Positions 1,338 through 53,406 are shown, counted from the first letter of the whole stretch. The stretch is DNA of 63,574 nucleotides, filler included, from Asterionella formosa (GCA_002256025.1; 23 parts of 23 records of this genome joined end to end with filler, not necessarily neighbours in it), one strand, 5' to 3'. Notes: generated from the sequence alone by a model not told the origin. Numbers and translations: made by a program.

Positions 1338-1429
1338 GGTACCTGCTGCCCTGGTACCAGGTTACCAGTGCTGTCTCCCGGTATGGTACCAGTACCAGGT
1401 ACCAGGTACCAGGGTACTATGGTACCTGG
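1338..1429. repeat. TA-CCWGG-TA footprint-like array
   Basis: Parses as TA-TGG-TA-CCAG-TA-CCAGG-TA-CCAGG-TA-CCAGGG-TA-C-TA-TGG-TA-CCTGG and abuts the gypsy LTR end. Confidence 0.85.
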
Positions 1430-1625
1430 TGAAGTATCTAACTAGAAGTAGTAGTATTTGTTGAATATATGAGCTTATTAATTAATCCTTATGTATAACT
1501 CATTTCCTGAACTGACATCAAAAGTATAGAATGGGTGTTAGTCGAGTTCTCTCATTATTGAATTCCGATATATTTGACATAACCCCAACTCTATATATAT
1601 CTGTATCGATGTGCAGGATTGCTCA
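1430..1625 (-). mobile_element. Ty3/gypsy 3' LTR, copy 1
   Basis: Follows the integrase stop and the purine tract GGGAGAG. It begins TGAG and ends TTCA. The same ~195-bp sequence occurs at 10182, 12159 and 30804. Confidence 0.85.
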
Positions 1626-1651
1626 CTCTCCCACACTTGAGGGAAAACCTT

Positions 1652-2677
1652 TTACCTATGAAAAGGTTTGATACGACGAATATTAATTCGTTCGGTAATA
1701 TGCATAGTGCGTTGAAAAGTAACTGTACCATTGGCATGTACTTGAATAATAGTATAAGGACCTCGTCCACGATCATCCAAAGTAGTAGGATTATCCAATA
1801 ATATTAAAATCTCGTCACCCACTTTGTAATCATAAGATCGACGACGGAAATTTGCACGACGTAAACGTTCGTCAATTATCACCTGTCGACGTTGATGTAT
1901 TAATTGTAAATCTGTAATCAAAGGAATATTTAATATCATATCACGTTGGAAAACCCATGCTCCTGGTGAAATACGTAATATACTATGAATAGTAGCTCGA
2001 GCTGCATATGACGCAGCTGCAAAACATGTATCCACAATATTTTGGGCTTGAAATTCATTGATTGGAGGATGAGCCTTTAACATAACTCGTAGACTATTGC
2101 TGATAGATTGATGGAAACGTTCACAGATAGCATTTGCTTGTGGATTCTTTACTGTGGTAGTCACATCTTTGATTCCATTCAATACTAACATGTGTAAGAA
2201 AGGAGCACCAGTAAATTCACCTCCATTGTCATGTATACAACGTTCTGGACGGGGATATCTGGCTAACCAATCATTTTCAAATTTCATTGCAATATATTCT
2301 GATGTTTTATTGATGATACGTGAAATTTCTGCTAAATTGGTGACTGTGTCAATACAAGTTAGAGCACGAAATTCAATCGTTTGAGCAGCCACTGTTATCT
2401 TCCATGGACCAATTAGATCTACTGCGACTTCTGACCATGGTAATAATAATGCATTCCTGGGTGGAAGTTCACCAAAACCAGTACCAGGTAATTTTGTACG
2501 TTGACATGCTTCACATACTCTTACAATATGTTCCACTCTTGTTTTTAATATAGGGTGATAAAAATGTGTAGCAATTGTAGCATTTAATCTTGTCATACCC
2601 ACATGAGCTAACATCTGATGATACCAATTAATAATAGGATCCAATAATGATGTAGGAATAGCAATACGCCAAGTATC
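1652..2677 (-). CDS. Ty3/gypsy pol C-terminus: integrase (partial, open frame)
   Basis: HHCC zinc finger (WYHQMLAH...CEAC), DDE core (VDLIGP, IHDNGGEF, NAICER) and GPY module (RGPYTI). Truncated by the contig end. Confidence 0.95.
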   Translation of the reverse strand, partial: DTWRIAIPTSLLDPIINWYHQMLAHVGMTRLNATIATHFYHPILKTRVEHIVRVCEACQRTKLPGTGFGELPPRNALLLPWSEVAVDLIGPWKITVAAQTIEFRALTCIDTVTNLAEISRIINKTSEYIAMKFENDWLARYPRPERCIHDNGGEFTGAPFLHMLVLNGIKDVTTTVKNPQANAICERFHQSISNSLRVMLKAHPPINEFQAQNIVDTCFAAASYAARATIHSILRISPGAWVFQRDMILNIPLITDLQLIHQRRQVIIDERLRRANFRRRSYDYKVGDEILILLDNPTTLDDRGRGPYTIIQVHANGTVTFQRTMHITERINIRRIKPFHR

Positions 2678-2777: not shown

Positions 2778-3230
2778 ATCTTGAACCAGAAAAATTAGCA
2801 TAAGCGGCAGATGTTGCTCCACCATTGTCTTCACTCTCCCCAGAAATCGCTATAAAATCATCATCAACATTTGGCTCATCAATATTGGGCTCATTGGGCT
2901 CTCTATCTATTCCAAGATCAGTGGATTCAATCTCAGCACTTGCATCTGCTTGTTGCTCGATTCTTCGAAAAATTTGTTTGGCATATCTCACCTCAGCAGG
3001 GCATGTTGGGTCCCCAGTTGGTTTCTTAACTTTGTGCAGCTGTGAAAACTTTCGGCGAAGTGAAGGTCCTGTCCGTTCTTTGCTTGTCTGGGAAATTCTC
3101 GTTGTGCTGTGATGCAACAACTTCCCATTCATGGGACCCAATTGGCAGGTGAGTAGAAATGGTTTCCAGCAATGAGAGAATCTCATTGATCCTGAACTGT
3201 TGACCCCGACTCTGCATGCTTCGGCGAGCT
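2778..3230 (-). pseudogene. Myb/SANT-like (DUF6818-type) protein, frameshifted; often transposon (Harbinger)-associated
   Basis: LPIGSHEWEVVASQHNENFP..R in one frame continues as LRRKFSQLHKVKKPTGDPTCPAEVRYAKQI in another, with a frameshift near 3070. The family assignment is from motif recall. Confidence 0.6.
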
Positions 3231-4788
3231 CTTGGAAACGTTGGTGCTCGCCTGGCAGTTGCTGTTCTTGAAACTGAACTAGTAGGAGCACGTGAAAAAT
3301 CGTTTTTGTTCCTTGATGGGGACTGAGTAACCCAAGAAACACCTGGGACACCTATCCTACTGTCCTCATCGTCACTGGCAAACTTATCAGCAACAGTGTC
3401 ATCTTCATTGTTGTCGTCGTCGTCGTCCTCCTCCTCTTCTTCTGGTTGAGTCTGTTCTTGTTGTTCTTGTTGCTGGTGACGGCGACGTTCAAGCAGCCTT
3501 GGAGAGGAAGGGAAGCCCTCCCTGGCTGGCTGCTCTCCTTTGACCAGAAGAAGATGAAGACATGGCCGAAATCTAAAAGCGATGACGATCGATTTATTGA
3601 GGAGGTTGATTGATAGTATGTAACGATATGCATATGTATATGCATACCTATTTTGGCAAGAGCAAGCCATTTTGAGTATGAGCAAGCAAGTCTTGAAATA
3701 TTCCGGGAAATTCTATATACTCATTCATGTCTAAACATCTTTTTATATAATGCACTGTTATTTATAACTGTAAAAAATTTGTGTTTGTGTTGACCAAATT
3801 TGGTAATCCTGGTAAGCACCTGCAGGTAAGGAGAGGAAGGTGTGAGTGATATGACACCAACAGCAGGTGAAGGAGGGAAGTCTGAGCTGCCAGTTTGCTT
3901 TTGGAACTATATACTTGGGTTGCACTGCCTCCCAGCAGATCGAGATGCAATGTCACCTAGTTTTGAAACTAAGGTGGATGACATCAGCCAGCCAGTCAAC
4001 TCTCATCTTGAAGGAGTTTTGACTCTTGACTACTAGTATTATTGGTGGTAGCAGGAGTGACAAGTATGCAGAATGATGATTGAGAGTCCAGAAATGCCTC
4101 AAATGTGTTGTTTGAAGAAGTTTTCAACAATTAACAAGTTGATGAACCAACAGAAATGATGCAGGATGTGCGTCAAAGAGGTAGGAGGGAGGAAGCAATT
4201 CTTTCAGTATTGTAGCCTTTCTGTTACACCAAAAACTATTTGTTCTGTGGTAGGAATGCAAAGTTGGAATTAGGTTTGTAAGGTGGCTGAAAATGTTACA
4301 AGGGTTGGACAGGATAGAGTAAGGAAGGTGGAGTATTGTTACTTCTTGGCAAAGCGTTGTGTGGGATACTATGATGACTGCCCTACTTTGAGCTGCGTTT
4401 TTTTCACTGCCACATTGCAAATCGACAAAATGTATGAGGTATATATTCCAGATAGAAAAGTGCCACAGATTAGATTGCCAATGAATTGATATCTGCTGAT
4501 CATCATCACACTGGTGGTCATACACAGCTAGTATGTATTTAGGTTATCATTACAAAGATGCATGATTTCATACTACTGGAGCTACATTACTTTTTTCACT
4601 ATTTTTCATTAGCTATACATTGATTGTTTTCACTTCATTTCGGGTATATATGTATTATCCATATACATACCTACCAGTAATAGACTTGGTCCTCTATTTA
4701 CTGTAATGTAGTGCTATAGTATATGTACTCGTGGTGACTTCATATTAAGTACTCTAAATATATACAATGGTCTATTCCCCGAATACAC

Positions 4789-4892
4789 GTACCCTGGTAC
4801 CCTGGTACCAGGGTACCAGTCGATAGGAGCAATGGTACCAGTACCGGTATTGTCGCTAGCTTTGTGAACTGAACTGGAGTACTACCGGTAGT
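4789..4892. repeat. TA-CCCTGG/CCAGGG/CCAG/CCGG-TA footprint-like array
   Basis: GTACCCTGGTACCCTGGTACCAGGGTACCAG...GGTACCAGTACCGGTA...TACTACCGGTAGTA. Confidence 0.8.
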
Positions 4893-10124: not shown

Positions 10125-10178
10125 TACTACCGGTAGGTACATGGTATGGTATGGTATGGTATGGTATGGTATGGTACC
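10125..10178. repeat. (TATGG)n / TA-CCGG-TA array
   Basis: TACTACCGGTAGGTAC followed by ATGGT x7 and ACC, directly beside the gypsy LTR end. Confidence 0.85.
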
Positions 10179-10181
10179 GAG

Positions 10182-11006
10182 TGAAGTATCTAACTAGAAG
10201 TAGTAGTATTTGTTGAATATATGAGCTTATTTGTTAATCCTTGTGTGTAACTCGTTCTCCAAGTCGACACCAAAGTATACAATGAGGGTTAGTCGAGTTC
10301 TCTCATTATTGAGTTCTTATACATACATGATATAACACTAACCCTATATACATCTGTATTGATGCGCAAGATCGCTCACTCTCCCACACCAAGGGAAAAC
10401 CTTTTACCTTTGAAAAGGTTTGATGTAATGGATATTAATTCAGTCCGTAGTATGCATAGTTTGTTGAAAAGTAACTGGACCATTGGCATATACTTGAATA
10501 AATAGAATAAGGACCTCGTCCATGGTTATCCAAGGTAGTAGGATTATCCGATAGGATTAAAACCTCATCAACAACCTTGTAATCGCAAGAACGACGACGG
10601 AAAGTATCACGACGTAGTCATTTGTCAATTATCACTTATCGACATTGATATCCCAATATCAATTACATATCTATAATCAAATCATGTTGTAAAACCCATG
10701 TTCCTGGTGAAAATACACAATGTACTATAAATAGTAGCTCGAGCTGCATATGATGCAGCAAACTGGTATCCACAATATTCTGAACTTGAAATTCCTTGAT
10801 TGGAGGATGAGCCTTTAACATGACTTGTACATAGGCTTTTAATGTGTATGAAAGGAATACCAGTAAATTGACCTCCATTGTCATGTATACAACCTTCTGG
10901 ACGGAGATATCCGTCCAACCAATCATTTTTAAATTTCATCGCAATATATTCTGATGTCTTATTATTGATATGTGAAATTTCTGGTAAATTGGTGACTGTG
11001 TTAACT
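10182..11006 (-). mobile_element. Older diverged copy of the same gypsy family: LTR (10182..10378) plus a decayed, internally deleted integrase
   Basis: Clear but diverged similarity to 1430-2350 (KFKNDWL, IHDNGGQF, AASYAARAT), with frameshifts. Confidence 0.92.
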
Positions 11007-11106: not shown

Positions 11107-12132
11107 GATACTTGGCGTATTGCTATTCCTACATCATTATTGGATCCTATTATTAATTGGTATCATCAGATGTTAGCTCATGTGGGTATGACAAGATTAA
11201 ATGCTACAATTGCTACACATTTTTATCACCCTATATTAAAAACAAGAGTGGAACATATTGTAAGAGTATGTGAAGCATGTCAACGTACAAAATTACCTGG
11301 TACTGGTTTTGGTGAACTTCCACCCAGGAATGCATTATTATTACCATGGTCAGAAGTCGCAGTAGATCTAATTGGTCCATGGAAGATAACAGTGGCTGCT
11401 CAAACGATTGAATTTCGTGCTCTAACTTGTATTGACACAGTCACCAATTTAGCAGAAATTTCACGTATCATCAATAAAACATCAGAATATATTGCAATGA
11501 AATTTGAAAATGATTGGTTAGCCAGATATCCCCGTCCAGAACGTTGTATACATGACAATGGAGGTGAATTTACTGGTGCTCCTTTCTTACACATGTTAGT
11601 ATTGAATGGAATCAAAGATGTGACTACCACAGTAAAGAATCCACAAGCAAATGCTATCTGTGAACGTTTCCATCAATCTATCAGCAATAGTCTACGAGTT
11701 ATGTTAAAGGCTCATCCTCCAATCAATGAATTTCAAGCCCAAAATATTGTGGATACATGTTTTGCAGCTGCGTCATATGCAGCTCGAGCTACTATTTATA
11801 GTATATTACGTATTTCACCAGGAGCATGGGTTTTCCAACGTGATATGATATTAAATATTCCTTTGATTACAGATTTACAATTAATACATCAACGTCGACA
11901 GGTGATAATTGACGAACGTTTACGTCGTGCAAATTTCCGTCGTCGATCTTATGATTACAAAGTGGGTGACGAGATTTTAATATTATTGGATAATCCTACT
12001 ACTTTGGATGATCGTGGACGAGGTCCTTATACTATTATTCAAGTACATGCCAATGGTACAGTTACTTTTCAACGCACTATGCATATTACCGAACGAATTA
12101 ATATTCGTCGTATCAAACCTTTTCATAGGTAA
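11107..12132 (+). CDS. Ty3/gypsy integrase (partial), copy 2
   Basis: The protein is identical to the 1652..2644 ORF except for H->Y (ATIHS vs ATIYS). Confidence 0.95.
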   Translation, partial: DTWRIAIPTSLLDPIINWYHQMLAHVGMTRLNATIATHFYHPILKTRVEHIVRVCEACQRTKLPGTGFGELPPRNALLLPWSEVAVDLIGPWKITVAAQTIEFRALTCIDTVTNLAEISRIINKTSEYIAMKFENDWLARYPRPERCIHDNGGEFTGAPFLHMLVLNGIKDVTTTVKNPQANAICERFHQSISNSLRVMLKAHPPINEFQAQNIVDTCFAAASYAARATIYSILRISPGAWVFQRDMILNIPLITDLQLIHQRRQVIIDERLRRANFRRRSYDYKVGDEILILLDNPTTLDDRGRGPYTIIQVHANGTVTFQRTMHITERINIRRIKPFHR

Positions 12133-12158
12133 AAGGTTTTCCCTCAAGTGTGGGAGAG

Positions 12159-12353
12159 TGAGCAATCCTGCACATCGATACAGATATATATAGAGTTGGG
12201 GTTATGTCAAATATATCGGAATTCAATAATGAGAGAACTCGACTAACACCCATTCTATACTTTGATGTCAGTTCAGGAAATGAGTTATACATAAGGATTA
12301 ATTAATAAGCTCATATATTCAACAAATACTACTACTTCTAGTTAGATACTTCA
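12159..12353 (+). mobile_element. Ty3/gypsy 3' LTR, copy 2
   Basis: PPT GGGAGAG at 12152-12158, then TGAG...TTCA, followed by CCAGGTACC. Confidence 0.85.
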
Positions 12354-12498
12354 CCAGGTACCTGATGCCAGGAACATGGTATCAGCCTACCGGCGGTACC
12401 TGGTACCTGGTACCAGGTACCGGTAACTGAATTTGTGTGGAGCGATATACATACCGGTTCTGGTACCTGGTACCAGGTACCAGTACTGGTACCGGTAC
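12354..12498. repeat. TA-CCWGG/CCGG/CCAG/CTGG-TA footprint-like array
   Basis: GGTACCTGGTACCTGGTACCAGGTACCGGTA and GGTACCTGGTACCAGGTACCAGTACTGGTACCGGTACC. Confidence 0.85.
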
Positions 12499-12867
12499 CT
12501 TCCTTTGCGTCGTCATTCTTGCTCTATGACATGTGTATTTTAGTGCCGATGCAAGAAAAACAGTGCCGTCATGGTGGGCGATCTGTTCAAATGAATCTTC
12601 ACAAATCATCGTGATCAGTAGTCTAATAATACCGGTAATAATAATGAGAATATTATTTCCGGTACACTTTTGCACTTATGTTCATGAAATAAATAAATAA
12701 ACCTATAAAATGTAAAGTACAAACAAACCATCCACATGCGAAATCTTGATGCTTTTTTAAATATCGCATCTAACGCTTGTCTTATTGCGCGCTTGTTCGT
12801 ACAATCCCTCGTGATGAGCGATCCCCACCACATCTACGAAAAAAAGGCTGGCTCCCTGTGGTCCAAC

Positions 12868-13066
12868 CTCGATTAGCGTGTGAGTACCGGCATGTGCACT
12901 GTCGACTTTAGTACAATACAGGCGGAGTGACTTCGCTACTACCAAGACATCATAGAAAATTAATCAAGCAATCATAAAGTATGTTAATTAATATATGTGT
13001 TTGTCGTTTAATGTATACAGTTAAAGTCAACAGTTAGCTAATATGATAGTATTATACAGTGGATAG
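12868..13066. repeat. Dispersed repeat family B (deletion derivative of 25559..26050)
   Basis: 12870-12940 matches the reverse complement of about 25977-26046, and 12941-13066 matches the reverse complement of about 25559-25680. Confidence 0.85.
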
Positions 13067-13882: not shown

Positions 13883-13976
13883 ACGATTGGAAGACTTTCG
13901 TAAACGAAGATGCTACTTGGATCGTCTGAAGTAGTAAGACTACAACAGCCGCGACGGAACAGCGGTACGTTGCCAT
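13883..13976 (-). CDS. 5' end of a probable plastid-targeted protein
   Basis: MATYRCSVAAVVVLLLQTIQVASS|FTKVFQS: a signal peptide plus F at +1 (ASAFAP-like). Truncated by the gap. Confidence 0.55.
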
Positions 13977-14156
13977 GAGGATGAATTTATGCAAGTACCG
14001 GGTACATACCGGTACAATGAAAAAGACTGCTCTGAGATATGCACTCGCACCTTTGTTCATATTCCAGTACATACATAGGATGTGGTACCGGTAGGAGTAC
14101 ACAGAAGGACAAACAGTAAGGTTGCTGGCATGATACTAAAAATATAGCACCTGGTA

Positions 14157-16052
14157 CCAGTCAAAAACTGCTTAAGACCACTATATTACCCCGTTTTTGG
14201 GCTAAAATTAGAAAAATGTTCAGCCGACCCCATTTAAAACCCTTTGAACAGAGGTCAACTAATGCATGCAAGCACTAGATAAATGAATCATTTTAACAAT
14301 TGGAAGGATATATGTTGCGATATCGCACTTTTTAAATCGTTGATTTTGCACTTTAGTGGTCTAAAACAATTCATATACTTTTTATCATGTATATGTACTT
14401 TTTAATGGTAAATGGTTAAAAGATATTACCTCGTTTTCCATGATTTCTCCAATTTCTTATGTCAACTGACGTCGATTTATTGTGCAAACAACAACACATA
14501 AATCACTTTTCCATAATCACAACTTCATCCTCGTCATCCCCTGCAGCTGAGGCTGATGGTGGCAGTATTGCTACAGCAACTGGGACTGGTGCATCGCCAC
14601 CTCTGATTGTATCAACATACTCGGTAAGCAGTAGTTGTTTCGTTGCAGGTTATGCATGGTGCATCGCCAGTTCGTTTGTACCACAACACGATTGTCTTTG
14701 TTTGCGCCACCGTCCATTTTTGTGGCCGTTTGTTGAGAGCTCTGATCGCTTGCACCTCGTTCAATGTTGCTTTATAATCCATAACTTTCTTATTCGCTTT
14801 CTCACTCTCCTTCTACACTGCTCTTCTTTTCTCCTAGTCATGTCGTCCAGTGCTTCCGTTCCCAGTTTAAAGCGTCCAGTCGCCACACGAAGTCCTGCCA
14901 TATACCTTTTATTTTGTGCGATCGCCAATAGTGCCAACTGGCAAGCCATCTGATCAAGATTGATGCCGACCACATGCTTGCGGTGCTGGAGCAAGTTTCA
15001 TGGTCTCAATGGAATTTTTTGTTTATATTTGTCCCCCCCCCCCTTCTCACCGGAAAGTTGTGTTTGTTGAGTCTCATGCTGTTCCGGTCTATCGGCTAGA
15101 TTATTGTTTCTCACACTGCTGTGCTTATCTTCATTACATGTAACTGGTGTCAAAGTGGACGAAGCAGTAGTGGTGGCTCTGGTTCCAAAGGTAAGTGTAC
15201 TGCTAGTTTCGATTTGTTCTGCTGGGGAACAATCCAATAGCACTATAGAATTCAAACCCTCTACTACTAGATCTTTCTTGTCATTATTCAATTTCTTCAA
15301 AGGGTACTTCACCATGTCTTTTGTTTGCCACGTTATTGTGTCAACTTTGTCTGCTACTAATAATCTAGCTAGCAATAGCAAAACTTGGTAAATCAACTCC
15401 TCCACTGTTAGCCTTTCTAGCGTCTACTTCTCTGACATTGTTGTTTAGAACAAGCTTTACTTTATCCTTATCTAGAGACTTAAAAATAACTCTGTACTTG
15501 CTCAAGGTTTGGCACTTTTTCGGTACATTATACTAAGTTGTAAGATCCAGAGAAATGAAAATGTGATATATTGTGATGGTCTCAAGAGCATTTCAGGATG
15601 CATCGATGTTGACAGTACAAAATCACTAAATTGCTATGGTGCGAACTAGTGAGTATGTTTACATTGGGATGTTGCACACAATCGCGCCGTAATCATAAAA
15701 AATTCACCTCAAGAAAAGCGTTAAAGGAAGCTATGTTAATTTGGAGTATAAAATTATATATTATCGTATATTAAATATAAATGTCGGCCCAGCTAAACGA
15801 GGTAATTTTGTTTTCTTCCAATGTCGTGCCTCACTCAACATTTTCGAAGTCGTTTATCTCACGAACTGGAACACAACATCGATCGGGCTTTAAGACATCC
15901 TAAGATATATGTAGATGCGTGAAACAAATGACTTGTTTATAGTAAATATTTTCGTATTGCTAAAATTGAAAAAGTTTGTAGTACAAAATGTAAGATTACC
16001 CTGTCATAGTGGTCTAAGTAGTTCATAGTGGTCTAAAGCAGTTTTTAACTGG
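14157..16052. mobile_element. Complete non-autonomous TA-targeting TIR DNA transposon (Tc1/mariner/pogo-like), 1896 bp
   Basis: Left end TA|CCAGTCAAAAACTGCTTAAGACCACTAT; right end ATAGTGGTCTAAAGCAGTTTTTAACTGG|TA. The TIRs are 28 bp with 2 mismatches and TA lies on both sides. Extra TAGTGGTCTAA copies occur at about 14354 and 16007. Confidence 0.9.
14560..14960 (-). pseudogene. Decayed ORF inside the TIR element, possibly a transposase C-terminal region
   Basis: Frame-joined reading ...FKLGTEALDD..K-rich..VQAIRALNKRPQKWTVAQTKTIVLWYKRTGDAP.PATKQLLLTEY. The assignment is inference only. Confidence 0.35.
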
Positions 16053-16398
16053 TACCTGGTACCTGGTAACTGGTAAACGGTACCAGCACCGGGATAGTGG
16101 TGTCTATTTTATGTTTGGCTGATCTAACGGTTACCGGTGCGTATACTGGCGAAAATTTGCGTCCGTGTCATGTACCGGTACCAGGGTACTGGTACCAGGT
16201 CCTGTCCGTGAATGCGGTGTACCTGGTATGCTATTATCATGTGGCTGGTGGGTCAGTGATGTTTCCTTCGCTCATGATCATATATGCGGCCATTATTGTT
16301 TGGCAGAATGGTGATGGTCGTTATACATCATCGGCCTTGTCTTTTTTATAGAATACCTGGAGACTATACATAGGCTGTACTGCGTGCGCCGATTGACA

Positions 16399-16556
16399 AT
16401 GGTTGTGATTGCATCATCGCCTCTGCTAATAATGACAATGATTACACTGATTGGGATCCATTCAAGACGAGTGGCTGCGTTTTCGCCACATCAGAATGTT
16501 GCAGCAGCCAACGCCAGATCGATCCGCTTTGCCACGACGATTACTGCTGAACCCTC
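16399..16556 (+). CDS. 5' end of a plastid-targeted protein
   Basis: MVVIASSPLLIMTMITLIGIHSRRVAA|FSPHQ: a signal peptide with an AAFSP (ASAFAP) cleavage motif. Truncated by the gap. Confidence 0.65.
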
Positions 16557-30803: not shown

Positions 30804-33180
30804 TGAAGTATCTAACTAGAAGTAGTAGTATTTGTTGAATACCGGGTATATGAGCTTATTAATTAATCCTTATGTATAACTCATTTCCTGAACTGACATC
30901 AAGTACAGAATGGGTGTTACCGGGTAGTCGAATCCTCTCATTATTGAATTCCGATATATTTGACAAAACCCTAACTCTATATATATCTGTATCGATGTGC
31001 AGGATTGCTCACTCTCCCACACTTGGGGGAAAACCTTTTACCTATGAAAAGGTTTGATACGACGAATATTAATTCGTTCGGTAATATGCGTAGTGCGTTG
31101 AAAAGTAACTGTACCATTGGCATGTACTTGAATAATAGTATAAGGACCTCGTCCACGATCATCCAAAGTAGTAGGATTATCCAATAATATTAAAATCTCG
31201 TCACCCACTTTGTAATCATAAGATCGACGACGGAAATTAGCACGACGTAAATGTTCGTCAATTATCACTTGTCGACGTTGATGTATTAATTGTAAATCTG
31301 TAATCAAAGGAATATTTAATATCAAATCACGTTGAAAAACCCATGCTCCTGGTGAAATACGTAATATACTATGAATAGTACTAGCTCGAGCTGCATATGA
31401 CGCAGCTGCAAAACATATATCCACAATATTTTGGGCTTGAAATTCATTGATTGGAGGATGAGCCTTTAACATAACTCGTAGACTATTGCTGATAGATTGA
31501 TGTACCGGTAAACGTTCACAGATAGCATTTGCTTGTGGATTCTTTGCTTACTGTGGTAGTCACATCTTTGATTCCATTCAATACTAACATGTGTAAGAAA
31601 GGAGCACCAGTAAATTCACCTCCATTGTCATGTATACAACGTTCTGGATGGGGATATCTGGCTAACCTATCATTTTCAAATTTCATTGCAATATATTCTG
31701 ATGTTTTATTGGTGATACGTGAAATTTCTGCTAAATTGCTTGGGGACTGTGTCAATACAAGTTAGAGCACGAAATTCAATCGTTTGAGCAGCCACTGTTA
31801 TCTTCCATGGACCAATTAGATCTACTGCGACTTCTGACCATGGTAATAATAATGCATTCCTGGGTGGAAGTTCACCAAAACCAGTACCAGGTAATTTTGT
31901 ACGCTGACATGCTTCACATACTCTTACAATATGTTCCACTCTTGCTTTTAATGTAGGGTGATAAAAATGTGTAGCAATTGTAGCATTTAATCTTGTCATA
32001 CCCACATGAGCTAACATCTGATGATACCAATTAATAATAGGATCCAATAATGATGTAGGAATAGCAATACGCCAAGTATCTCCTGGATTCTTCACAAAAC
32101 ATATTGAAAATATATCATGAAAATTGATAGAAGGAAATTTTAATGGATGTGTTTGTTGATTGAGAATCAATTGTATATCCAGCAATTGTCTATCATGCAT
32201 TAAATGATAATCCAGAGGATATTGAATATTGTCTGTCAAGATGGGATGATTAAGGAAACATGTAAGCAGAGGTTCATCATCTAATTCAATTGAAAAAGTA
32301 GAAGAAGAAAATGATGTTGGAGATTTCGGTCCAATATCAATATCATCCTCCACCAAAGACTCAAGCCTCGGGAGGCGAGAGATGGAATCTGCAATAGCAT
32401 TGTCAGTCCCTTTCACATAGTGAAAAGTAGGATGATATTCTTCAATATAAAGTCTCCATCTTAGAACACGTTGATTATGTAAAGTATTATAAATAAGATT
32501 TCGATGATCAGTGTGAACATGTAGAACTGCGCCCAATAACATAGAGCGAAATTCTTTGAAAGTTTCTACCACAGAAAGTAATTCTTTTTCAATAGTAGTA
32601 TAATTCTTTTGAGCAGCAGATAATTTGCGAGAATAATAAGCAACTGGGAGATCATTTTGAGATCATTTTGCATAATGACCGACCCTAGCTAATTGATAAT
32701 CAGAGGCTGTGTATTAAAAAAAAGGTCATATAGCATGACACTGGCATGAGATGAATAAGTACCAGCTATGGTATGTATTAATTGGGAAGTCTCATCAGAC
32801 AAAGAAATACTTTGAGGCATAACCCGTTCATGTATTAAGGATAATGATCCTCCACTATCGAATAAAACTCGTAGTATTTTATGTATCGGTATATTATCCA
32901 CCAATTTTGGCGCTAAAAGGGACATCGGAATCAAATCAATTGATGCTAATATATCCTTAGAAGTAAAACAGGAAACCGGAATTGGTCCCTGATATGTATG
33001 TGGAACATCATGTCCATCAATACAGTTATATAAATCCCGCGTTACATTAACAGCGGTATCCATAGTGTATTCAACCTGTAAATAAACAATATTATTCAGG
33101 TGATGACTAACGTGAGATATACTCAACGAGTCATTATAACGCTATTATCGCACATACCTCTGTAATGGCGATCAGCAATC
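30804..33180 (-). mobile_element. Gypsy copy 4: protease region, RNase H, integrase, 3' LTR (30804..31011); RT deleted; frameshifted
   Basis: Protease motif VLFDSGG; RNase H motifs EKELLSVVETFKEF, HTDHRNL and NAIADSISRL. Integrase and LTR are about 98% identical to copy 1 by manual comparison. Confidence 0.93.
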
Positions 33181-35948: not shown

Positions 35949-37240
35949 NNNNNNNNNNNNNNNNNNNNNNNNNNNNNNNNNNNNNNNNNNNNTTAATTAA
36001 TTAANNNNNNNNNNNNNNNNNNNNNNNNNNNNNNNNNNNNNNNNNNNNTCGATGTTCCATACATGCCATCAAGACTAGTCTTGTTCTTATGTTTGCGATC
36101 GTCTTATCAGCTAAAGCAGATGTTGTTGATCAGTTGGCTGGTTGACAGCGGTTGAGTCTCCTCATGAAATGACAGGAATGTCAATATGTATACCCGGTAA
36201 ACTGTACGTGCCGGTAGCTAATGGACAACAGAAATCATCCAGATTCTTCCTCCTTCTTGCTTGGGCTGACACCTGAAAATGGTGCCGCGTCTCAAATTTT
36301 GTCATCATACCGGTAGTAGGAGTGTGGTACGGTACTTACTAACTATGTAGGGACGAGCATCATTTACATAATGTATTTTATATTATTATTAATTAAGAAC
36401 GTACCGGTAAATAGCACCGGTGCGGTACTCCGAGTACCGTAGGACCGGTAAGTATGTTGAAGCAATGCTAACAAACACAAACTGGTCACCTGCTATACCA
36501 CCTGATTACCATGTACCATATTGTGTACTTACAGACAAGCAATCCTTTGCCACATGCCTCCTCGTTGTTCTACCTGGGCACGTTTGCACGAATGGGAGAC
36601 CTGGCTGTTGATTGGCATTGTCGATCAACACACAAGGACACCTAACAATCCAGCGGACTGCTTAAACCTGGTACCAGGTATGGTTCCAGTACTCTATTGT
36701 ACATCGATACGCGATACCAGGGAACTCCTTCTGTGGTACCAGGTACAATAAAATAACACTTGCATCGATGATTCAAACTTCTCCGTGGCCATTTTCACTC
36801 TTGCGACTTTTTCCGGCTAAATTGCCCTATTGTGTGGCTTGCTATAAGCTATTGACGCATGAATATATTAAATACTATATACAAGCAAAAAAAAAAATTG
36901 GCAACTACATCTCAAATTTTTTTAGAGCTTTTTCGATTTCACCCTACATATGGCTTCTACGGGTATCTCGAACAAAACGCAGATCATGACCCATTTTTCT
37001 TCGAATCACAAACTAGTGTACCGGTATTCTCAACAAGTAGGATATAACGTCATCAATTCTATCACGACTTGATAATGACGTAGGTATGCTAATTATTTCG
37101 CATAAAAAATGTTGATGTTTAATTTAATTAATGATATGTTTTACCAGCACATAAGTAATATTGTCCCTCAACATAACATCACACATCAGTATCATACACC
37201 GGTACAGGTAGCATGAGTCGCACGTACTCAACGGTACTCA

Positions 37241-37990: not shown

Positions 37991-38816
37991 TTTTGACAAT
38001 GAAATGAGTAACGGCTTAATGTCTATGTAAATGACTATTTAAAGAATATCGGAGTGGCACAAAATTTAGGGGTTCGACAATTTTTGGGGTATACCCCTTC
38101 CTTTTTCTCGTATGTGAATCAATGAACAGAAAACGAGCAACCTGCACGCTATGTGCACTGATTACCGGACCTTCCTGGTCCTGTACCCTGGTACATGGTG
38201 GAATTTCTTGGACGACACCACCGTATGCTGCAAGGTTCCATTGCTCCGTTGGTAATCATTCTACCAAAATTTGGCAGTACCGGGACTACCGGTATACTAC
38301 GTTTTAGAATTTTTGTCTTTCTCCATACCATATTTTCATCACGGTCAAGGAAGGAATACCGGACAGTACTGACCTGTCCAGAGTACCGGTAGAACACTCC
38401 CGGAGCCCTATCTTAAAGGAAAATACTACATTATCCAATAATGTACTGGTATATTTTGCTAAATTGGTTGGTAGGGAATAGTTGGAATCATGGAATCAAG
38501 AATTACGGAAGCATTCAACCCAACAAATATCTGTGGGGTGCATGATATCATAAAATATGATGAGAGAGATGACTTCTCGATTCTTGTTGATTTCCTTCTC
38601 ACACTTATCTTGACAACAGGATCGTTTTTGTCCCTGTTTACTGATCCACCATGTTCTCCATCCTTTCCCGTCGTGCTCTCTCCAATCCTACGGCTTTGGT
38701 CTTCACGTTCCGCACTNNNNNNNNNNNNNNNNNNNNNNNNNNNNNNNNNNNNNNNNNNNNTTAATTAATTAANNNNNNNNNNNNNNNNNNNNNNNNNNNN
38801 NNNNNNNNNNNNNNNN

Positions 38817-41149
38817 CAATCTTTGTGGGAAGTGTACCAGTAAAAGTATTGGAATACAAATATAGATAATTGAGACTTGCCAAGAGTCCAATCTCTGTGG
38901 GAATTGTGCCAGTGAAAATATTTGCAGACAAAACTAGATAATTGAGACTTGTCAAGAGTCCAATCTCTGTGGGAAGTGTGCCAGTGAAAGTATTGAAAGA
39001 CAAATCTTGATTATTGAGACTTGTCAAGAAACCAATCTCTGTGGGAAGTGTGCCATTGAAAGTATTGGAATACAAATGTAGATCAATGAGATTTGTTAAG
39101 AGACCAATCTCAGTCGGAAGTTTGCCAGTAAAAGTATTGGAATACAGATATAGATAATTGAGACTTGTCATGAGTCCAATCTCTGTTGGAAGTGTACCGC
39201 TTAACTTATTAGGACCCAATGATAAGAATGTTAAGCTTGACAAGGGTCCCAGCTCAGTTGGAATATTTCCAGTCAGATCATTACCATTTCGAAAGTTTAA
39301 ATGTCCTGTTATCAAAAAGTCTGTCAATCATTTGCTGAATTCCTTTGTCAATCAATTTTTTCCATTTACTTACGTAGTTTTGTCACTTTAGGCCAAATTG
39401 AAGTGATATTTCCTGACAATAAAACATTGTCACCAAAGTCCAATGTAGCTGGCTCAGTAGGAAAAATCAAAAATTAAAAATTCAAGTTTCAATAATTCAC
39501 ACTGATCCATCACAACAATTCTTATCCTGAACTTACAAAGATTGCTCATTTTCTCAAAAAAAGATGGTAAATTTTCAATGAAATCTGCAGAGCAATTTAA
39601 GCTCTCTTTCAAAAAGAAATTAAGAAACAGAGAAGGTTATAAAATATCTTAAAGACCTTTTTTCCGTTTTACATGTCACTTACCAATGTTTGTTAGCTGA
39701 CTGAAGCTTATAGGTAGTTCAAAAATTGAATTGTTGCTAAAGTCAATGTGGACTGTTTTTTGAAAACACAGTAAAATCAAAGGGTCAGATTGCATGGATG
39801 TTTTGGCAAAATTTGTTTTCAGTAGATCTGTGCTTACTCAATCTTTCACTTAGGACTGCTATTTCTGGAGGAATGGATCCAATAAGTCCTTCTCCACTAA
39901 GTTGCAATGAGGTTACGACTGTTCCATTGCAGCCAATCCCTTTCCAATCACAAAAGTTGTAGTTGCCATATTCATTTGGGCTAATCCATTGCTCATTTGA
40001 CCGAGACAGAGTACTCAGCCATACTTCACCAAATGCTTCATAATAGATTACCGCCAAAACATAGAATTGAAGCAAGTTGAAATCAATTTCAGTACTTTCC
40101 AACCGTGGTATGAGATCTGTTTCTAACCATAACATGGCCCTATTCTGAGATGTGCCAGCAGTTTCAAGTGCTGCACCATCATCAAATGTATGAAAAGCCA
40201 AGAAACCAAACAAGTTTGAAGAAGGGCTTTGTGATGGAGTTTCTGATGGAGTCATTGATGGAATAAGAGATCGTGTAGGTGTTGTTGTGGGTGGGCTAGG
40301 GATTGGTTTAAGTTTCTCCAGCTGGATACCAATAAAGAAACCAATGATGGCAATAAGGCAGCTTATAACGAAAATTACCACAGTTTTGGCCAAGACTCTC
40401 AACAGCTGATGTCGACAATAGGCTTTTCCAATTGCGTCTTGGTCAAAAATAGTAGCACTGGCAATTTCAGGATCAACAACAAGTTCAGCATTGAAGAGTG
40501 CTGCACCTTCCTGCTGGCCTTGTTCATTCCTCATCTCATTGGTGTCAAAATCAGCACTACCATTCGCAAAGGAAAATGTCCTCAATCCCTGTACTGGAAA
40601 CGCACCAGGAAGTGGTGGTGGTGTCACAGCTTCTTGAGCCGGAACTATTGATGAGAGTCCCGTGACAAAGAAACCAGAAGTAAGGTTGTCTTCGTGAGGC
40701 ACCACTGGTATCTCGTGGAAAGTATTGGCTTTTTGGTCTTGTTGTTCAACTTTTGCTGTCTTTGGAAAATTGGTTTCATTGCTGTAGTCAACAGACTTCT
40801 TGGAAACTTTAGGCACTGCTGCCAGATATTCCAATAAATTAGTCCCTTCCAACTTTTCCTCCTTTGCTATTTCTGCAAAAGGGTGGGAATGATATTGTTC
40901 AGCGGTAGCAGGAGAAGCAGCAACTGCATGTGAACTTTGGTCAATAATGTTTTGCAAGTCTTGGAGAGTTAGGATGTCTGATTTTGACATATTGGCAGAG
41001 GTTACATATCTGCTGGAATCATGGTCATCCTTTTCTGAAGATGTGGGTGTCAACTTCTTTTCCATTTGCATTTTGGCACGACTTCTCTCAGCATTTAGGT
41101 GCTTCTTTACGGTGAACGTCAATGCTTCTTCGTCACAATGAGTCAACAA
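38817..41149 (-). CDS. Multi-exon type-II-membrane LRR receptor-like protein (partial)
   Basis: Long N-terminal exon with PGAF motif, a TM helix, a P/T/S linker and an LRRNT cap (FCDWKGIGC). Short ~70-bp exons lie at 39370-39760, followed by plant-type LxxNxFTGTLPTEIG repeats. Confidence 0.88.
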
Positions 41150-41225
41150 AGCGGGGGGTTTCTTCTCATCAAAGGTGTCAGTGGGCTCTATCTTCTTGCC
41201 TTGACCGTCATCATTCTTCTTTTTG

Positions 41226-41267
41226 TTAGGGTTAGGGTTAGGGTTAGGGTTAGGGTTAGGGTTAGGG
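41226..41267 (+). repeat. Interstitial telomeric repeat (TTAGGG)7
   Basis: Seven perfect units plus a degenerate TAAAGGG, with unique sequence on both sides. Confidence 0.95.
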
Positions 41268-41582
41268 TAAAGGGAAGACGCCTCTAGGCGTCATCCCTAT
41301 AGAGCATCCAGCCCTCTAGGGCTGGACATGTAACTGTAGTACGCAGTATGACTAATCCTACAGATGGAAACTGGTATGGGAATGAATATGTAAGTACTGG
41401 TTGTTTGTTTTTGATATGAATATGTAGAAGGGCACTGTTTTTGTACTTACCAGAGTGATTGTCATGTAAAATGTTACACATTNNNNNNNNNNNNNNNNNN
41501 NNNNNNNNNNNNNNNNNNNNNNNNNNTTAATTAATTAANNNNNNNNNNNNNNNNNNNNNNNNNNNNNNNNNNNNNNNNNNNN

Positions 41583-46081: not shown

Positions 46082-47348
46082 TACCTGGTACTATGCCTGG
46101 ATTTGGAGGACGAAAACCGGTTGAAAACGTACCAAAAATTGCGAATGCAGGGTACTTCAAAATGTTAGCTTTCTTTATCCCATATTAAATTGTTTATTTA
46201 AGCCAAAGGACCGCAAGTTGCATGTATTGGTAGAGGATATAACGGTACCAGGGTACCAGTTACCCTAGTGAGCTGCTGCCTTGTGCAGCACCACTTCTTT
46301 ATGATTTGTAAAAAAGCTTCTTTCAAGCATGAATACCATTATGTTATCGTGAAAATCAACGGAAAGTCGGCCAGGTTTAACATAATTTCTTTTCGTTTTG
46401 AAAGCTTTTCTTATGATATTATACCCTAGGACCAACTGGCATACCGGTAGTCAACGTTTCTCTCGTACCGACTCCACCACGCACATCTTCGAGCATTGAT
46501 TTACAAACTATATACATATGTAGGTATGTACATTGATCCTGCCTATAAGATTGATTTCCTAACATGAGTGATGTTGACGTTGTCCTGTCACAGGCAGGGC
46601 CTCGGCCTGCCTCAGCTCCCGCCATCCACCTCGCCGCCTGATGCATTTGATTTAATTTCGATATTTTCTCATTGCCCAAGGTATATGTAGTTCCTGGTAT
46701 GTGGCAAGCTTTACTTCGTAGCTGCCAGGTTCTACACCACATAAATCACGACAGACCACTGGCCCCCCAACGTGAGCATAAATTTCAAACCTTCCATTTT
46801 CAACTGTGAGCACTCCGTACTCATTTCGTCAGTCGAAACACGAAACAAAACGCATTGAACTCGCCGTGCCTGTTGGTGGGACAAACTTCTGCAAACTAGC
46901 TACGTCGAATTCAACAAGGACAAGACTCATCCGCACCCCAGCTCAATGTCAAGCGCAGTTGTTGAATCCCAGAGCGTTGGAATGAAGCTGGACAGCCTGC
47001 TTCAGCATGTTNNNNNNNNNNNNNNNNNNNNNNNNNNNNNNNNNNNNNNNNNNNNTTAATTAATTAANNNNNNNNNNNNNNNNNNNNNNNNNNNNNNNNN
47101 NNNNNNNNNNNATTTGATGCTACTTATTACATCGCATTTCATACTTTGGTTGCTCCAAACATCATGTTCAATTTTCATTGATGTTGCATGTTACAATCAT
47201 TCTCGTGTGTTTTACGCTTGTTGTACCATCTCTATGCATATTACCGATATTCTGGTTGTCATGCTAAATTCGGCAATTTTATTGCCGAAAAATTCGATGT
47301 GCCCCATATTGCCCTTAAATAAAAATTACTTAGGAAATTACTTAGAGC

Positions 47349-52733: not shown

Positions 52734-53406
52734 TGTTTTCTGATCTCCAAAATGCGAACCCGCGATATTGTTACTTACGATCGTATTTTTGCTATTGATT
52801 CTATTATCTGTTGGCGTACTGGTATCACGATATGTTGAATCTTTCTTGTCAATGATTATCATACCGTTAGTCCAGTAAATCATGATGGCAGCCAGCCCGA
52901 CAGCTATTATATCCCTTCCTCCGGTGTTGGCCAGGTATCCTCGTTTTCTATATCGGGAATGTGTATCCTCAATGTGTAGTTTCCAGATAGTACTCGTACT
53001 CTGATACCATACCAAGTACCTGGTACCATAAAGCTTTGGGATACATGTAGAGTGCTACAACACTACTAACGTACTATTAGCAACGAAAGAACACTAATTT
53101 TATCGAAACGGACACAACGGAAGCTAGGCTTGCTTGTGAGTGTAGCAACAGGCATTCATAGATGGCTGACCTTTTGAATTGAACGACCGGGACAAGTTCA
53201 GACCCTGGTACCGGTAACCCGGAAACTTTTTGACTTAAAGTTACCCGTTTTGGTTTTTCAAGAATTTATGGGGCCGTATGTAAGGTACCTAACCCTAGCA
53301 GGAACCAGGTATTTGGGCGAATGGTGCCGCGATAGCTTTTCAATCGTCAATCTTTGTATTTCAGGATGCTCGCAGTCTCAAAGCTCGTAAATTTTTTTAT
53401 TGGGCC

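Follow-up and report, generated by a model that had tools for sequence, protein, structure and literature searches.

The window (the whole stretch of 63,574 nucleotides analysed here, filler included) carries eukaryotic DNA of ~39% G+C, interrupted every ~2.8 kb (~2,776 bases, for instance at 2678-2777) by mask filler consisting of 44 N, TTAATTAATTAA and again 44 N. The 12 real-looking letters of this mask falsely enrich TAATTAATTA (22 copies) and TTAATT-type words in k-mer counts, and an excess of TA-ATTAAT-TA (22 versus 0.1) was rejected as biology since it is the mask cassette between N runs. Host genes code for a GH18 chitinase, a WD40 protein, a mitochondrial carrier and ARM and LRR proteins, and both copia-like and gypsy-like retroelement remains are present. 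The best named relatives of the complete mitochondrial-carrier ORF belong to pennate diatoms (~60-73% identity), one further protein being 99% identical. Parts of the queried stretch were found in 20 runs from 14 studies, the majority labelled as freshwater metagenomes. Rfam and tRNA scans of the window gave no matches. A 72-bp tandem repeat at 38817-39263 (5.3 copies, 84% matches), lying within an LRR-coding frame (38818-39327, minus strand), is simply ordinary LRR units at the DNA level. An interstitial telomere-type run, (GTTAGG)7.3 with 100% matches, occupies 41225-41268 at the upstream end of a 501-codon minus-strand open frame (39785-41290) that has no Pfam family.

A gypsy-like retroelement is represented by three integrase ends: copy 1 (1430-2677, minus strand), copy 2 (11107-12353, plus strand), 99.9% identical to copy 1, and copy 3 (30804-32080, minus strand), 98.3% identical to copy 1 over 1,279 columns. 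An older gypsy-like fragment (10179-11004) is inverted relative to copy 2, which abuts it. Copies 1 and 2 are mutually inverted, 8.4 kb apart in the window, and the mask cuts them at nearly equal distances from their ends (1,248 and 1,247 bp), hiding the sequence beyond. An ORF carrying Pfam DUF6818 (2779-3351, minus strand, E 4.4e-11) adjoins copy 1; several minus-strand ORFs of unknown family are located in 2778-4789, a region which ends in the repeat array at 4789-4892 and may be another mobile element.

Fifteen intergenic arrays had been described in an earlier note as TA dinucleotides separated by a small vocabulary of words, and all fifteen were recovered at their coordinates with the composition given there. 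The array at 1338-1429 abuts the end of gypsy-like copy 1 and parses partly as TGG-CCAG-CCAGG-CCAGG-CCAGGG. Upstream of it, two small groups lie within 712-900, one with TACCGGTA (712-735) and one with TA-CCCTGG-TA (887-900). The array at 4789-4892 reads CCCTGG-CCCTGG-CCAGGG, then a 20-nt TA-bounded insert which starts CCAGTC and ends TGG, then CCAG-CCGG and further TACCGGTA. At 10125-10178, abutting the end of the older gypsy-like fragment, TACCGGTA is followed by a perfect (ATGGT)7 run, that is TA-TGG repeated, which probably grew by slippage after seeding. The largest array (12354-12498) abuts the end of gypsy-like copy 2 and contains two chains, CCTGG-CCTGG-CCAGG-CCGG and CCTGG-CCAGG-CCAG-CTGG-CCGG, separated by filler that does not parse. 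Two arrays lie close together further on: 16053-16085 (CCTGG-CCTGG, then TA-ACTGG-TA and TA-AACGG-TA), which directly adjoins the inverted-repeat element at 14157-16052 considered below, and 16172-16228 (CCGG-CCAGGG-CTGG and further TACCTGGTA). The remaining sites comprise two loose groups within 36400-36746 (36400-36455 and 36667-36746), with TACCGGTA and TACCAGGTA (twice) and much unparsed sequence between; two isolated TACCGGTA words at 38287-38294 and 38384-38391 (within 38278-38391); a group at 46082-46262, with TACCTGGTA at 46082-46090 and TA-CCAGGG-TA at 46246-46255, then CCAGTT at 46256; and a small chain, CCTGG-CCA, at 53000-53030 between two divergent ORFs. The decomposition into TA and a small vocabulary thus held for words and composition but is not exhaustive: unparsed stretches are also present in arrays such as 12354-12498, 36400-36455 and 36667-36746.

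The enrichment predicted for TACCWGGTA, TACCGGTA and GGTACC was borne out, all three being strongly above Markov or shuffle expectation. The four most over-represented hexamers of the window were TACCGG, CCGGTA, GGTACC and ACCGGT. GGTACC was observed 48 times, against 6.3 expected under an order-1 and 12.1 under an order-2 Markov model; in 100 dinucleotide shuffles it averaged 6.36 with a largest value of 13. By the same shuffling, TACCGGTA (27 copies) gave a mean of 0.35 and a maximum of 2, and TACCWGGTA (18 copies) a mean of 0.32 and a maximum of 3. We then counted TA-X-TA for all X of 1-6 bases. The most frequent X within their own length classes were CCGG (27, 0.5 expected), CCTGG (10, 0.3 expected) and CCAGG (8, 0.3 expected), and enrichment extended to CCAG (11 versus 1.4), CTGG (9 versus 1.4), CCAGGG and CCCTGG (4 versus 0.1 each). 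A grammar of 14 such words identified 102 units, where 100 order-3 Markov simulations gave 26.7 +/- 5.2, and 10 chains of at least two units, where the simulations gave 0.21. Since 68 of the 102 units were isolated, the arrays form the visible, dense end of a dispersed motif. The isolated units are mostly CCGG and the chains mostly CCWGG, a difference that speaks against the footprint reading proposed below.

Comparison of near-identical paralogs revealed how such units arise. Six insertions of at least 3 bp distinguish gypsy-like copy 3 from copy 1, and four of them are clean conversions of TA to TA-X-TA, with X being CCGGG, CCGGG, C and CCGG. The first TA-CCGGG-TA (30840-30848) is missing in copies 1 and 2 and in the old fragment; the second lies at 30918-30926, TA-C-TA at 31379-31383, and TA-CCGG-TA at 31503-31510, inside the integrase reading frame, at a TA that had been created beforehand by a G-to-T change. 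The remaining two insertions are TT-GC-TT. In a second repeat pair (94-95% identical), compared by BLAST segments because a global alignment is meaningless across its non-homologous middle, we found a complex indel containing TACCGGTA, a TA-GC-TA and a TTT. Altogether, paralogs at least 94% identical differed by nine indels of at least 3 bp, five of which carry CC/GG words (four clean scars and the complex one containing TACCGGTA). Scars that arose in dead elements, at plain TA without a repeat nearby, are mutations and not conserved motifs.

A second kind of scar was seen in the same comparisons, TT-GC-TT twice in copy 3 (31539-31553 and 31731-31745) and TA-GC-TA once (13030-13045). The corresponding words are also frequent in the window (TAGCTA 32 observed versus 11.2 expected, TTGCTT 57 versus 35.5), and a further transposon family, one that duplicates 2 bp, may have left these GC-type scars.

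Logan contigs of four public runs from four studies (X1, X2, X3 and X7) were aligned to 13883-16556. The unique flanks showed only 0-1 letter differences in the four runs. At 14007-14014, the TACCGGTA scar was present in X1, X2 and X3; in the flank contig of X7, bases 14007-14012 (TACCGG) are missing and TACCGGTA is reduced to TA, the depth of this contig (169) being that of its flank. In the arrays right of 16053, 21 letters were gapped in X7 contigs and 14 in X3 contigs; X7 carried an array-length variant, and a minor form of X3 and X7 had 16069-16176 replaced by 34 other letters. The arrays thus vary within the species while the flanks remain nearly constant. A one-base difference in the G-run at 16184 of X1 suggests that CCAGGG arises from CCAGG by a one-base slip. 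CCGGTA-type insertions were also found at 15648 in other copies of the element family described next. Accordingly, the proposal that the units are insertion scars at TA, neither conserved motifs nor simple satellites, is supported twice, TA to TA-X-TA changes separating near-identical paralogs and one scar being polymorphic.

We searched for an agent among TA-bounded inverted repeats starting with CC (TACC...GGTA required). The only clear case outside the arrays was a 1,896-bp element at 14157-16052, flanked by TA on its left (14155-14156) and on its right (16053-16054), as expected for the two copies of a target duplication. Its 28-bp terminal inverted repeats, the left at 14157-14184 (plus strand, starting CCAGTC) and the right at 16025-16052 (minus strand, starting CCAGTT), agree at 26 of 28 bases (CCAGTCAAAAACTGCTTAAGACCACTAT and CCAGTTAAAAACTGCTTTAGACCACTAT), and 36-nt arms including flank bases are 92% complementary. 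The pattern had no other match in the window and none in 100 shuffles. The 11-base word TAGTGGTCTAA occurs at 14173 (in the left repeat), 14354, 16007 and 16026 (in the right repeat). Once the element and one TA are removed, the site reads CCTGG-TA-CCTGG-TA-CCTGG, the joint falling between array units: the resident copy landed on a scar-type TA.

In each of the four runs, contig depth summed over the element was ~100-900 times that of the flanks, with the step located within the depth bins of the inverted repeats, and 5,390 contigs of X1 fell on the element; as summed contig depth is not copy number, we conclude only that copies are many. Flank contigs of X1, X3 and X7 enter the inverted repeats by ~20 bases at either end of the element; those of X2 do so at the left end, the right-hand contig listed for this run starting at 16070. 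These contigs indicate that the insertion is real and common to the runs. Most of the depth disagrees with the window copy at dozens of positions (40 listed and 61 more), so the window copy has diverged from the sequence that clearly predominates in its family. One contig of about flank depth in all four runs joins 14175 to 14269, skipping 93 bases of the left subterminal part of the element, the shorter side of the joint being only 22 letters; this may be a shorter copy at the locus in those samples or an assembly-graph effect.

Four ORFs of the element (141, 169, 66 and 78 aa) gave no Pfam match at E <= 0.01. The 141-aa ORF matched only 17 short unnamed proteins, with low recognition in Atlas, and eight relatives that were scanned had no Pfam family. 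A six-frame search of the element against the remaining window sequence yielded no meaningful match. No transposase, including the DD(E/D) type with helix-turn-helix domains, was detected in the element or among the 38 window ORFs scanned, which showed only retroelement domains, DUF6818 and host genes. Membership of Tc1/mariner, superfamily and cut chemistry are thus read from structure only: the element probably works like Tc1/mariner, although we do not file it as a member, and this copy is probably non-autonomous.

Relatives of the element ends were looked for in metagenomes with a 17-base end pattern, too short to be specific. Among the 117 loci obtained, 113 look like chance matches, none having a longer terminus; this call is based on 25 listed loci which differ from the window repeat at 5 or more of the 11 bases after the pattern. 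The other four loci, all in one group of assemblies, share the longer terminus CCAGTYAAAAACTGCTTTGACCCAYG, preceded by TA in 4/4. Two of them, L060 and L110, resemble each other past the boundary, whereas their preceding sequences are unrelated, as a transposon end would predict. A third, L020, carries TACCGGTA twice within 30 bases outside the end. The 1-800 part of L020 also contains the C-terminal portion of a non-LTR retrotransposon-like ORF and then a (TAAC)n tail just upstream of these TACCGGTA scars.

A 2-bp TA target-site duplication is borne out by both sides of the window element and by the one visible end of each of the four related metagenome termini. Other sizes were considered and rejected. 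The 3-bp duplication of PIF/Harbinger (TAA/TTA) disagrees with the flanks, which read GTA|element|TAC. A 4-bp GTAC duplication fits the window copy but is contradicted by L060 (ATAC), by L020 (TTAC) and by scars at non-GTAC sites. A 5-bp CCTGG duplication, with TA inside the element, is ruled out because new scars duplicate TA and not five flank bases.

A simple scheme of excision makes a prediction for the scar words: if up to three end bases are kept on each side, X is drawn from {CCA, CC, C, nothing} followed by {TGG, GG, G, nothing}. Nine of the 11 words of the original vocabulary are such combinations of a prefix of CCA and a suffix of TGG. Tc1 cuts with a 2-base stagger, mariner and Sleeping Beauty with 3; TA-CC-GG-TA, the commonest word, is the one that a two-base stagger would leave. 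As a control for circularity, each possible inverted terminus was scored by the TA-X-TA excess it explains. CC ranked 1st of 16, CCA 1st of 64 (65 observed versus 4.2 expected), CCAG 1st of 256 and CCAGT 1st of 1,024; since the element search had imposed CC, the independent part of the match begins at the third base. Longer remnants, although too few for statistics, point in the same direction: TA-ACTGG-TA (16066), where ACTGG is the last five bases of the element, TA-CCAGTC...TGG-TA (4814-4837), and CCAGTT (46256), the first six bases of its right inverted repeat. TA followed by six end bases occurs eight times outside the element versus roughly three expected, a rough estimate too weak to count as evidence.

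Insertions at TA, recent and polymorphic, and a high-copy TA-flanked element with matching ends are thus both present. We consider it likely, though well short of certain, that a family of cut-and-paste DNA transposons left the arrays, and likewise the numerous solitary TACCGGTA-type words, as footprints of its excision. The responsible family probably includes the element at 14157-16052 as a resident, non-autonomous member. We infer that this family, and not another with the same ends, was responsible, that its cuts were staggered and that scar TAs are preferred. The scar idea of the earlier note, which named no agent, was thus essentially right, and a candidate agent can now be proposed.

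Footprints of transposons are textbook material. The process envisaged here would run as follows. The element would insert at TA and duplicate it; excision would leave a few bases of each inverted end on the donor DNA, and end joining would seal TA, CC or CCA, GG or TGG, and TA. Trimming would give the shorter forms and one-base slips in G-runs the longer ones, each event adding one TA. Repeated insertion and excision at or beside earlier scars would build up GGTACC-rich arrays whose units differ in length and orientation, and ordinary slippage would later lengthen some of these arrays. In its general form the mechanism is well established: after excision of a TIR transposon the break ends in short 3′ overhangs that come from the inverted repeats, its repair is variable, and Mariner targets TA (PMC4423477), while Stowaway and Mariner leave a small duplication and end bases (PMC4561436).

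Real TA-specific insertions could also have been made by another agent, either a different family with CC...GG ends or a TA-directed break filled with fixed letters, with the element merely having landed in an array. We regard this as unlikely, although several observations speak for it. No site both occupied and scarred was observed; loss of the resident copy was absent from the contig joints listed for the four runs (18 more joints lie outside the listing), which weighs neither way. Thirteen of the 102 units are not a simple prefix plus suffix and need an extra G or C (CCGGG 3, CCCGG 2, CCAGGG 4, CCCTGG 4); CCAGT ends do not predict CCGGG, CCAGGG or CCCTGG, and both best-documented new scars are CCGGG. 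The match past base 3 is marginal, the leading termini scoring 73 versus 74, 71 and 66 at base 4 and 76 versus 74, 73 and 73 at base 5. The GC-type scars (TT-GC-TT twice, TA-GC-TA once, and the excess of TAGCTA) further imply that more than one process leaves scars. Against another agent, precisely these ends are found on the only TA-flanked inverted-repeat element of the window, which lies within an array and is very high-copy; its relatives from another assembly likewise have flanking TA and adjoin TACCGGTA; and the remnants at 16066 and 4814 extend the match to 5-6 end bases.

A link with the gypsy-like retroelement, the arrays being part of it or its favoured integration target, appears very unlikely. 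All four of its copies and fragments end in GGTACC(T/G)(G/A)G directly before TGAAGTATC, and an array lies beyond the end in three of the four. Copy 3, by contrast, is followed by GGTACCTGG only once, with unrelated sequence beyond; the arrays adjoining copies 1 and 2 cannot be aligned with each other despite the 99.9% internal identity of these copies; and most arrays and all isolated scars are far from this retroelement. These ends suggest that a pre-existing GGTACC can seed an array, and it is more likely that the terminal GGTACC of the retroelement offers a favoured TA than that the arrays belong to the retroelement.

Still slightly less credible is an origin as ordinary micro- or minisatellites of a 7-bp unit, GGTACCW, made by replication slippage and blurred by point mutations. 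Tandem Repeats Finder did assign a period of 7 to arrays at 1385-1430, 12395-12429 and 12460-12500, and at 10141-10176 it reported a perfect (ATGGT)7.2 run, the only one that shows tandem like neighbours. Slippage had been dismissed in the earlier note because units of both orientations mix within a run; this argument is weak, as CCAGG and CCTGG differ at one central base only. The heterogeneity of unit length and the low identity of neighbours do oppose slippage. Lengths of 3 to 6 are mixed within one chain, and a hand count found identical neighbours at 9 of 24 chain junctions and, with the perfect (ATGGT)7 run left out, at 4 of 19, where independent draws predict ~13%; the chains thus resemble repeated independent events, not copied units. 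In addition, two thirds of the units stand alone (68/102), and new single units appeared at plain TA with no repeat nearby. Slippage of single units, by which the arrays could have been explained away, therefore fails as the sole cause; it is likely a secondary lengthening process.

Transcription-factor sites on the palindromes TACCGGTA and GGTACC, held by selection near genes, are the least probable source: the words are palindromic, none of 65 falls in nine long non-transposon ORFs (16.6% of non-N bases) and one group (53000-53030) lies between divergent ORFs, but the words arise as insertions in dead retroelement copies, once inside an integrase reading frame, they are present or absent and vary in array among the four runs while the flanks do not, five of ~10 array loci abut transposon ends, and a purge of frame-breaking scars would leave ORFs equally free of them. 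A frequent position near gene starts, as had been suggested, was not confirmed: among ~10 array loci, four abut gypsy-like ends, one adjoins the DNA element and a single one, 53000-53030, has divergent ORFs on either side, most loci abutting transposon ends or sitting downstream of ORFs.

Returning to excision footprints, their distribution is clearly clustered. Chains contain 24 neighbour junctions (19 without the ATGGT run) versus ~2.5 expected for 102 scars on 4,168 random TAs, and sequence within 2 kb of the resident element, 6.5% of the window, holds 20 of 78 units, the element itself holding none. GG is next to TA in three of six visible flanks of family members. Self-amplifying re-targeting, in which each event makes a new target, had been put forward; scar clustering and the resident copy on a scar-type TA favour it, but it is plausible rather than proven, as local hopping and slippage also cluster scars, and clustering plausibly fits a preference for scar TAs, local hopping or both. 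Going further, one may tentatively imagine, with the odds somewhat against it, that the footprints recreate and multiply a favoured target (TA in GGTACC), each jump favouring the next at the same spot; the arrays would then be self-growing landing pads that divert insertions from genes, natural freshwater populations would still harbour active members of the family, and no other process would contribute as many small insertions to the genome as its footprints do.

If the footprint reading is true, each scar stands for one excision, and 102 scars in 62 kb imply that cut-and-paste transposition in a freshwater diatom has been very intense in the past and probably continues. The scars would be a natural catalogue of double-strand break repair in diatoms and would account for a set of hypervariable loci that can serve as population markers, and a TA-targeting element could be developed for insertional mutagenesis in diatoms. 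The feedback by which footprints make the next target, if true, would be a new route to the birth of simple repeats. There is also a warning here: palindromic words that are enriched above all others in a genome can be debris left by mutation and not regulatory sites.

Tc1 and Sleeping Beauty are Tc1/mariner-superfamily transposons with excision footprints, and cut-and-paste transposons show local hopping and target-site preference. As in Tc1/mariner elements and plant Mariner/Stowaway (PMC4561436, PMC4423477), the element studied here has a TA target duplication and terminal inverted repeats (~20-30 bp or longer being typical, 28 bp here). The scar words would also suit Tc1/mariner footprints, in which the resealed donor carries TA, a few end bases (2-3) per side and TA, with variable trimming, and, similarly, non-autonomous copies far outnumber any autonomous one. 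Unlike Tc1/mariner, no transposase was found here, so that the likeness is structural only, and the footprints are stacked up to 5-6 units and, with the isolated ones, make up the most over-represented hexamers. We know of no description of footprints stacked in arrays that give the most over-represented hexamers, and none of stacked-footprint arrays was found for diatoms or, searched more generally, for any organism in a search of the literature outside subscription journals and closed supplements; stacked footprints that supply the most enriched words of a genome are thus an unusual variant of a known mutation type. With slippage micro- and minisatellites the arrays share short tandem units, length polymorphism among populations and detection by Tandem Repeats Finder, and (ATGGT)7 behaves in this way; they differ from them in mixed unit length and orientation per run, in mostly solitary units and in new units at non-repeat TA. 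Finally, scars that cluster around the resident copy, itself on a scar-type TA, recall local hopping and target preference, with the difference that the preferred context would here plausibly come from the element's own earlier footprints.
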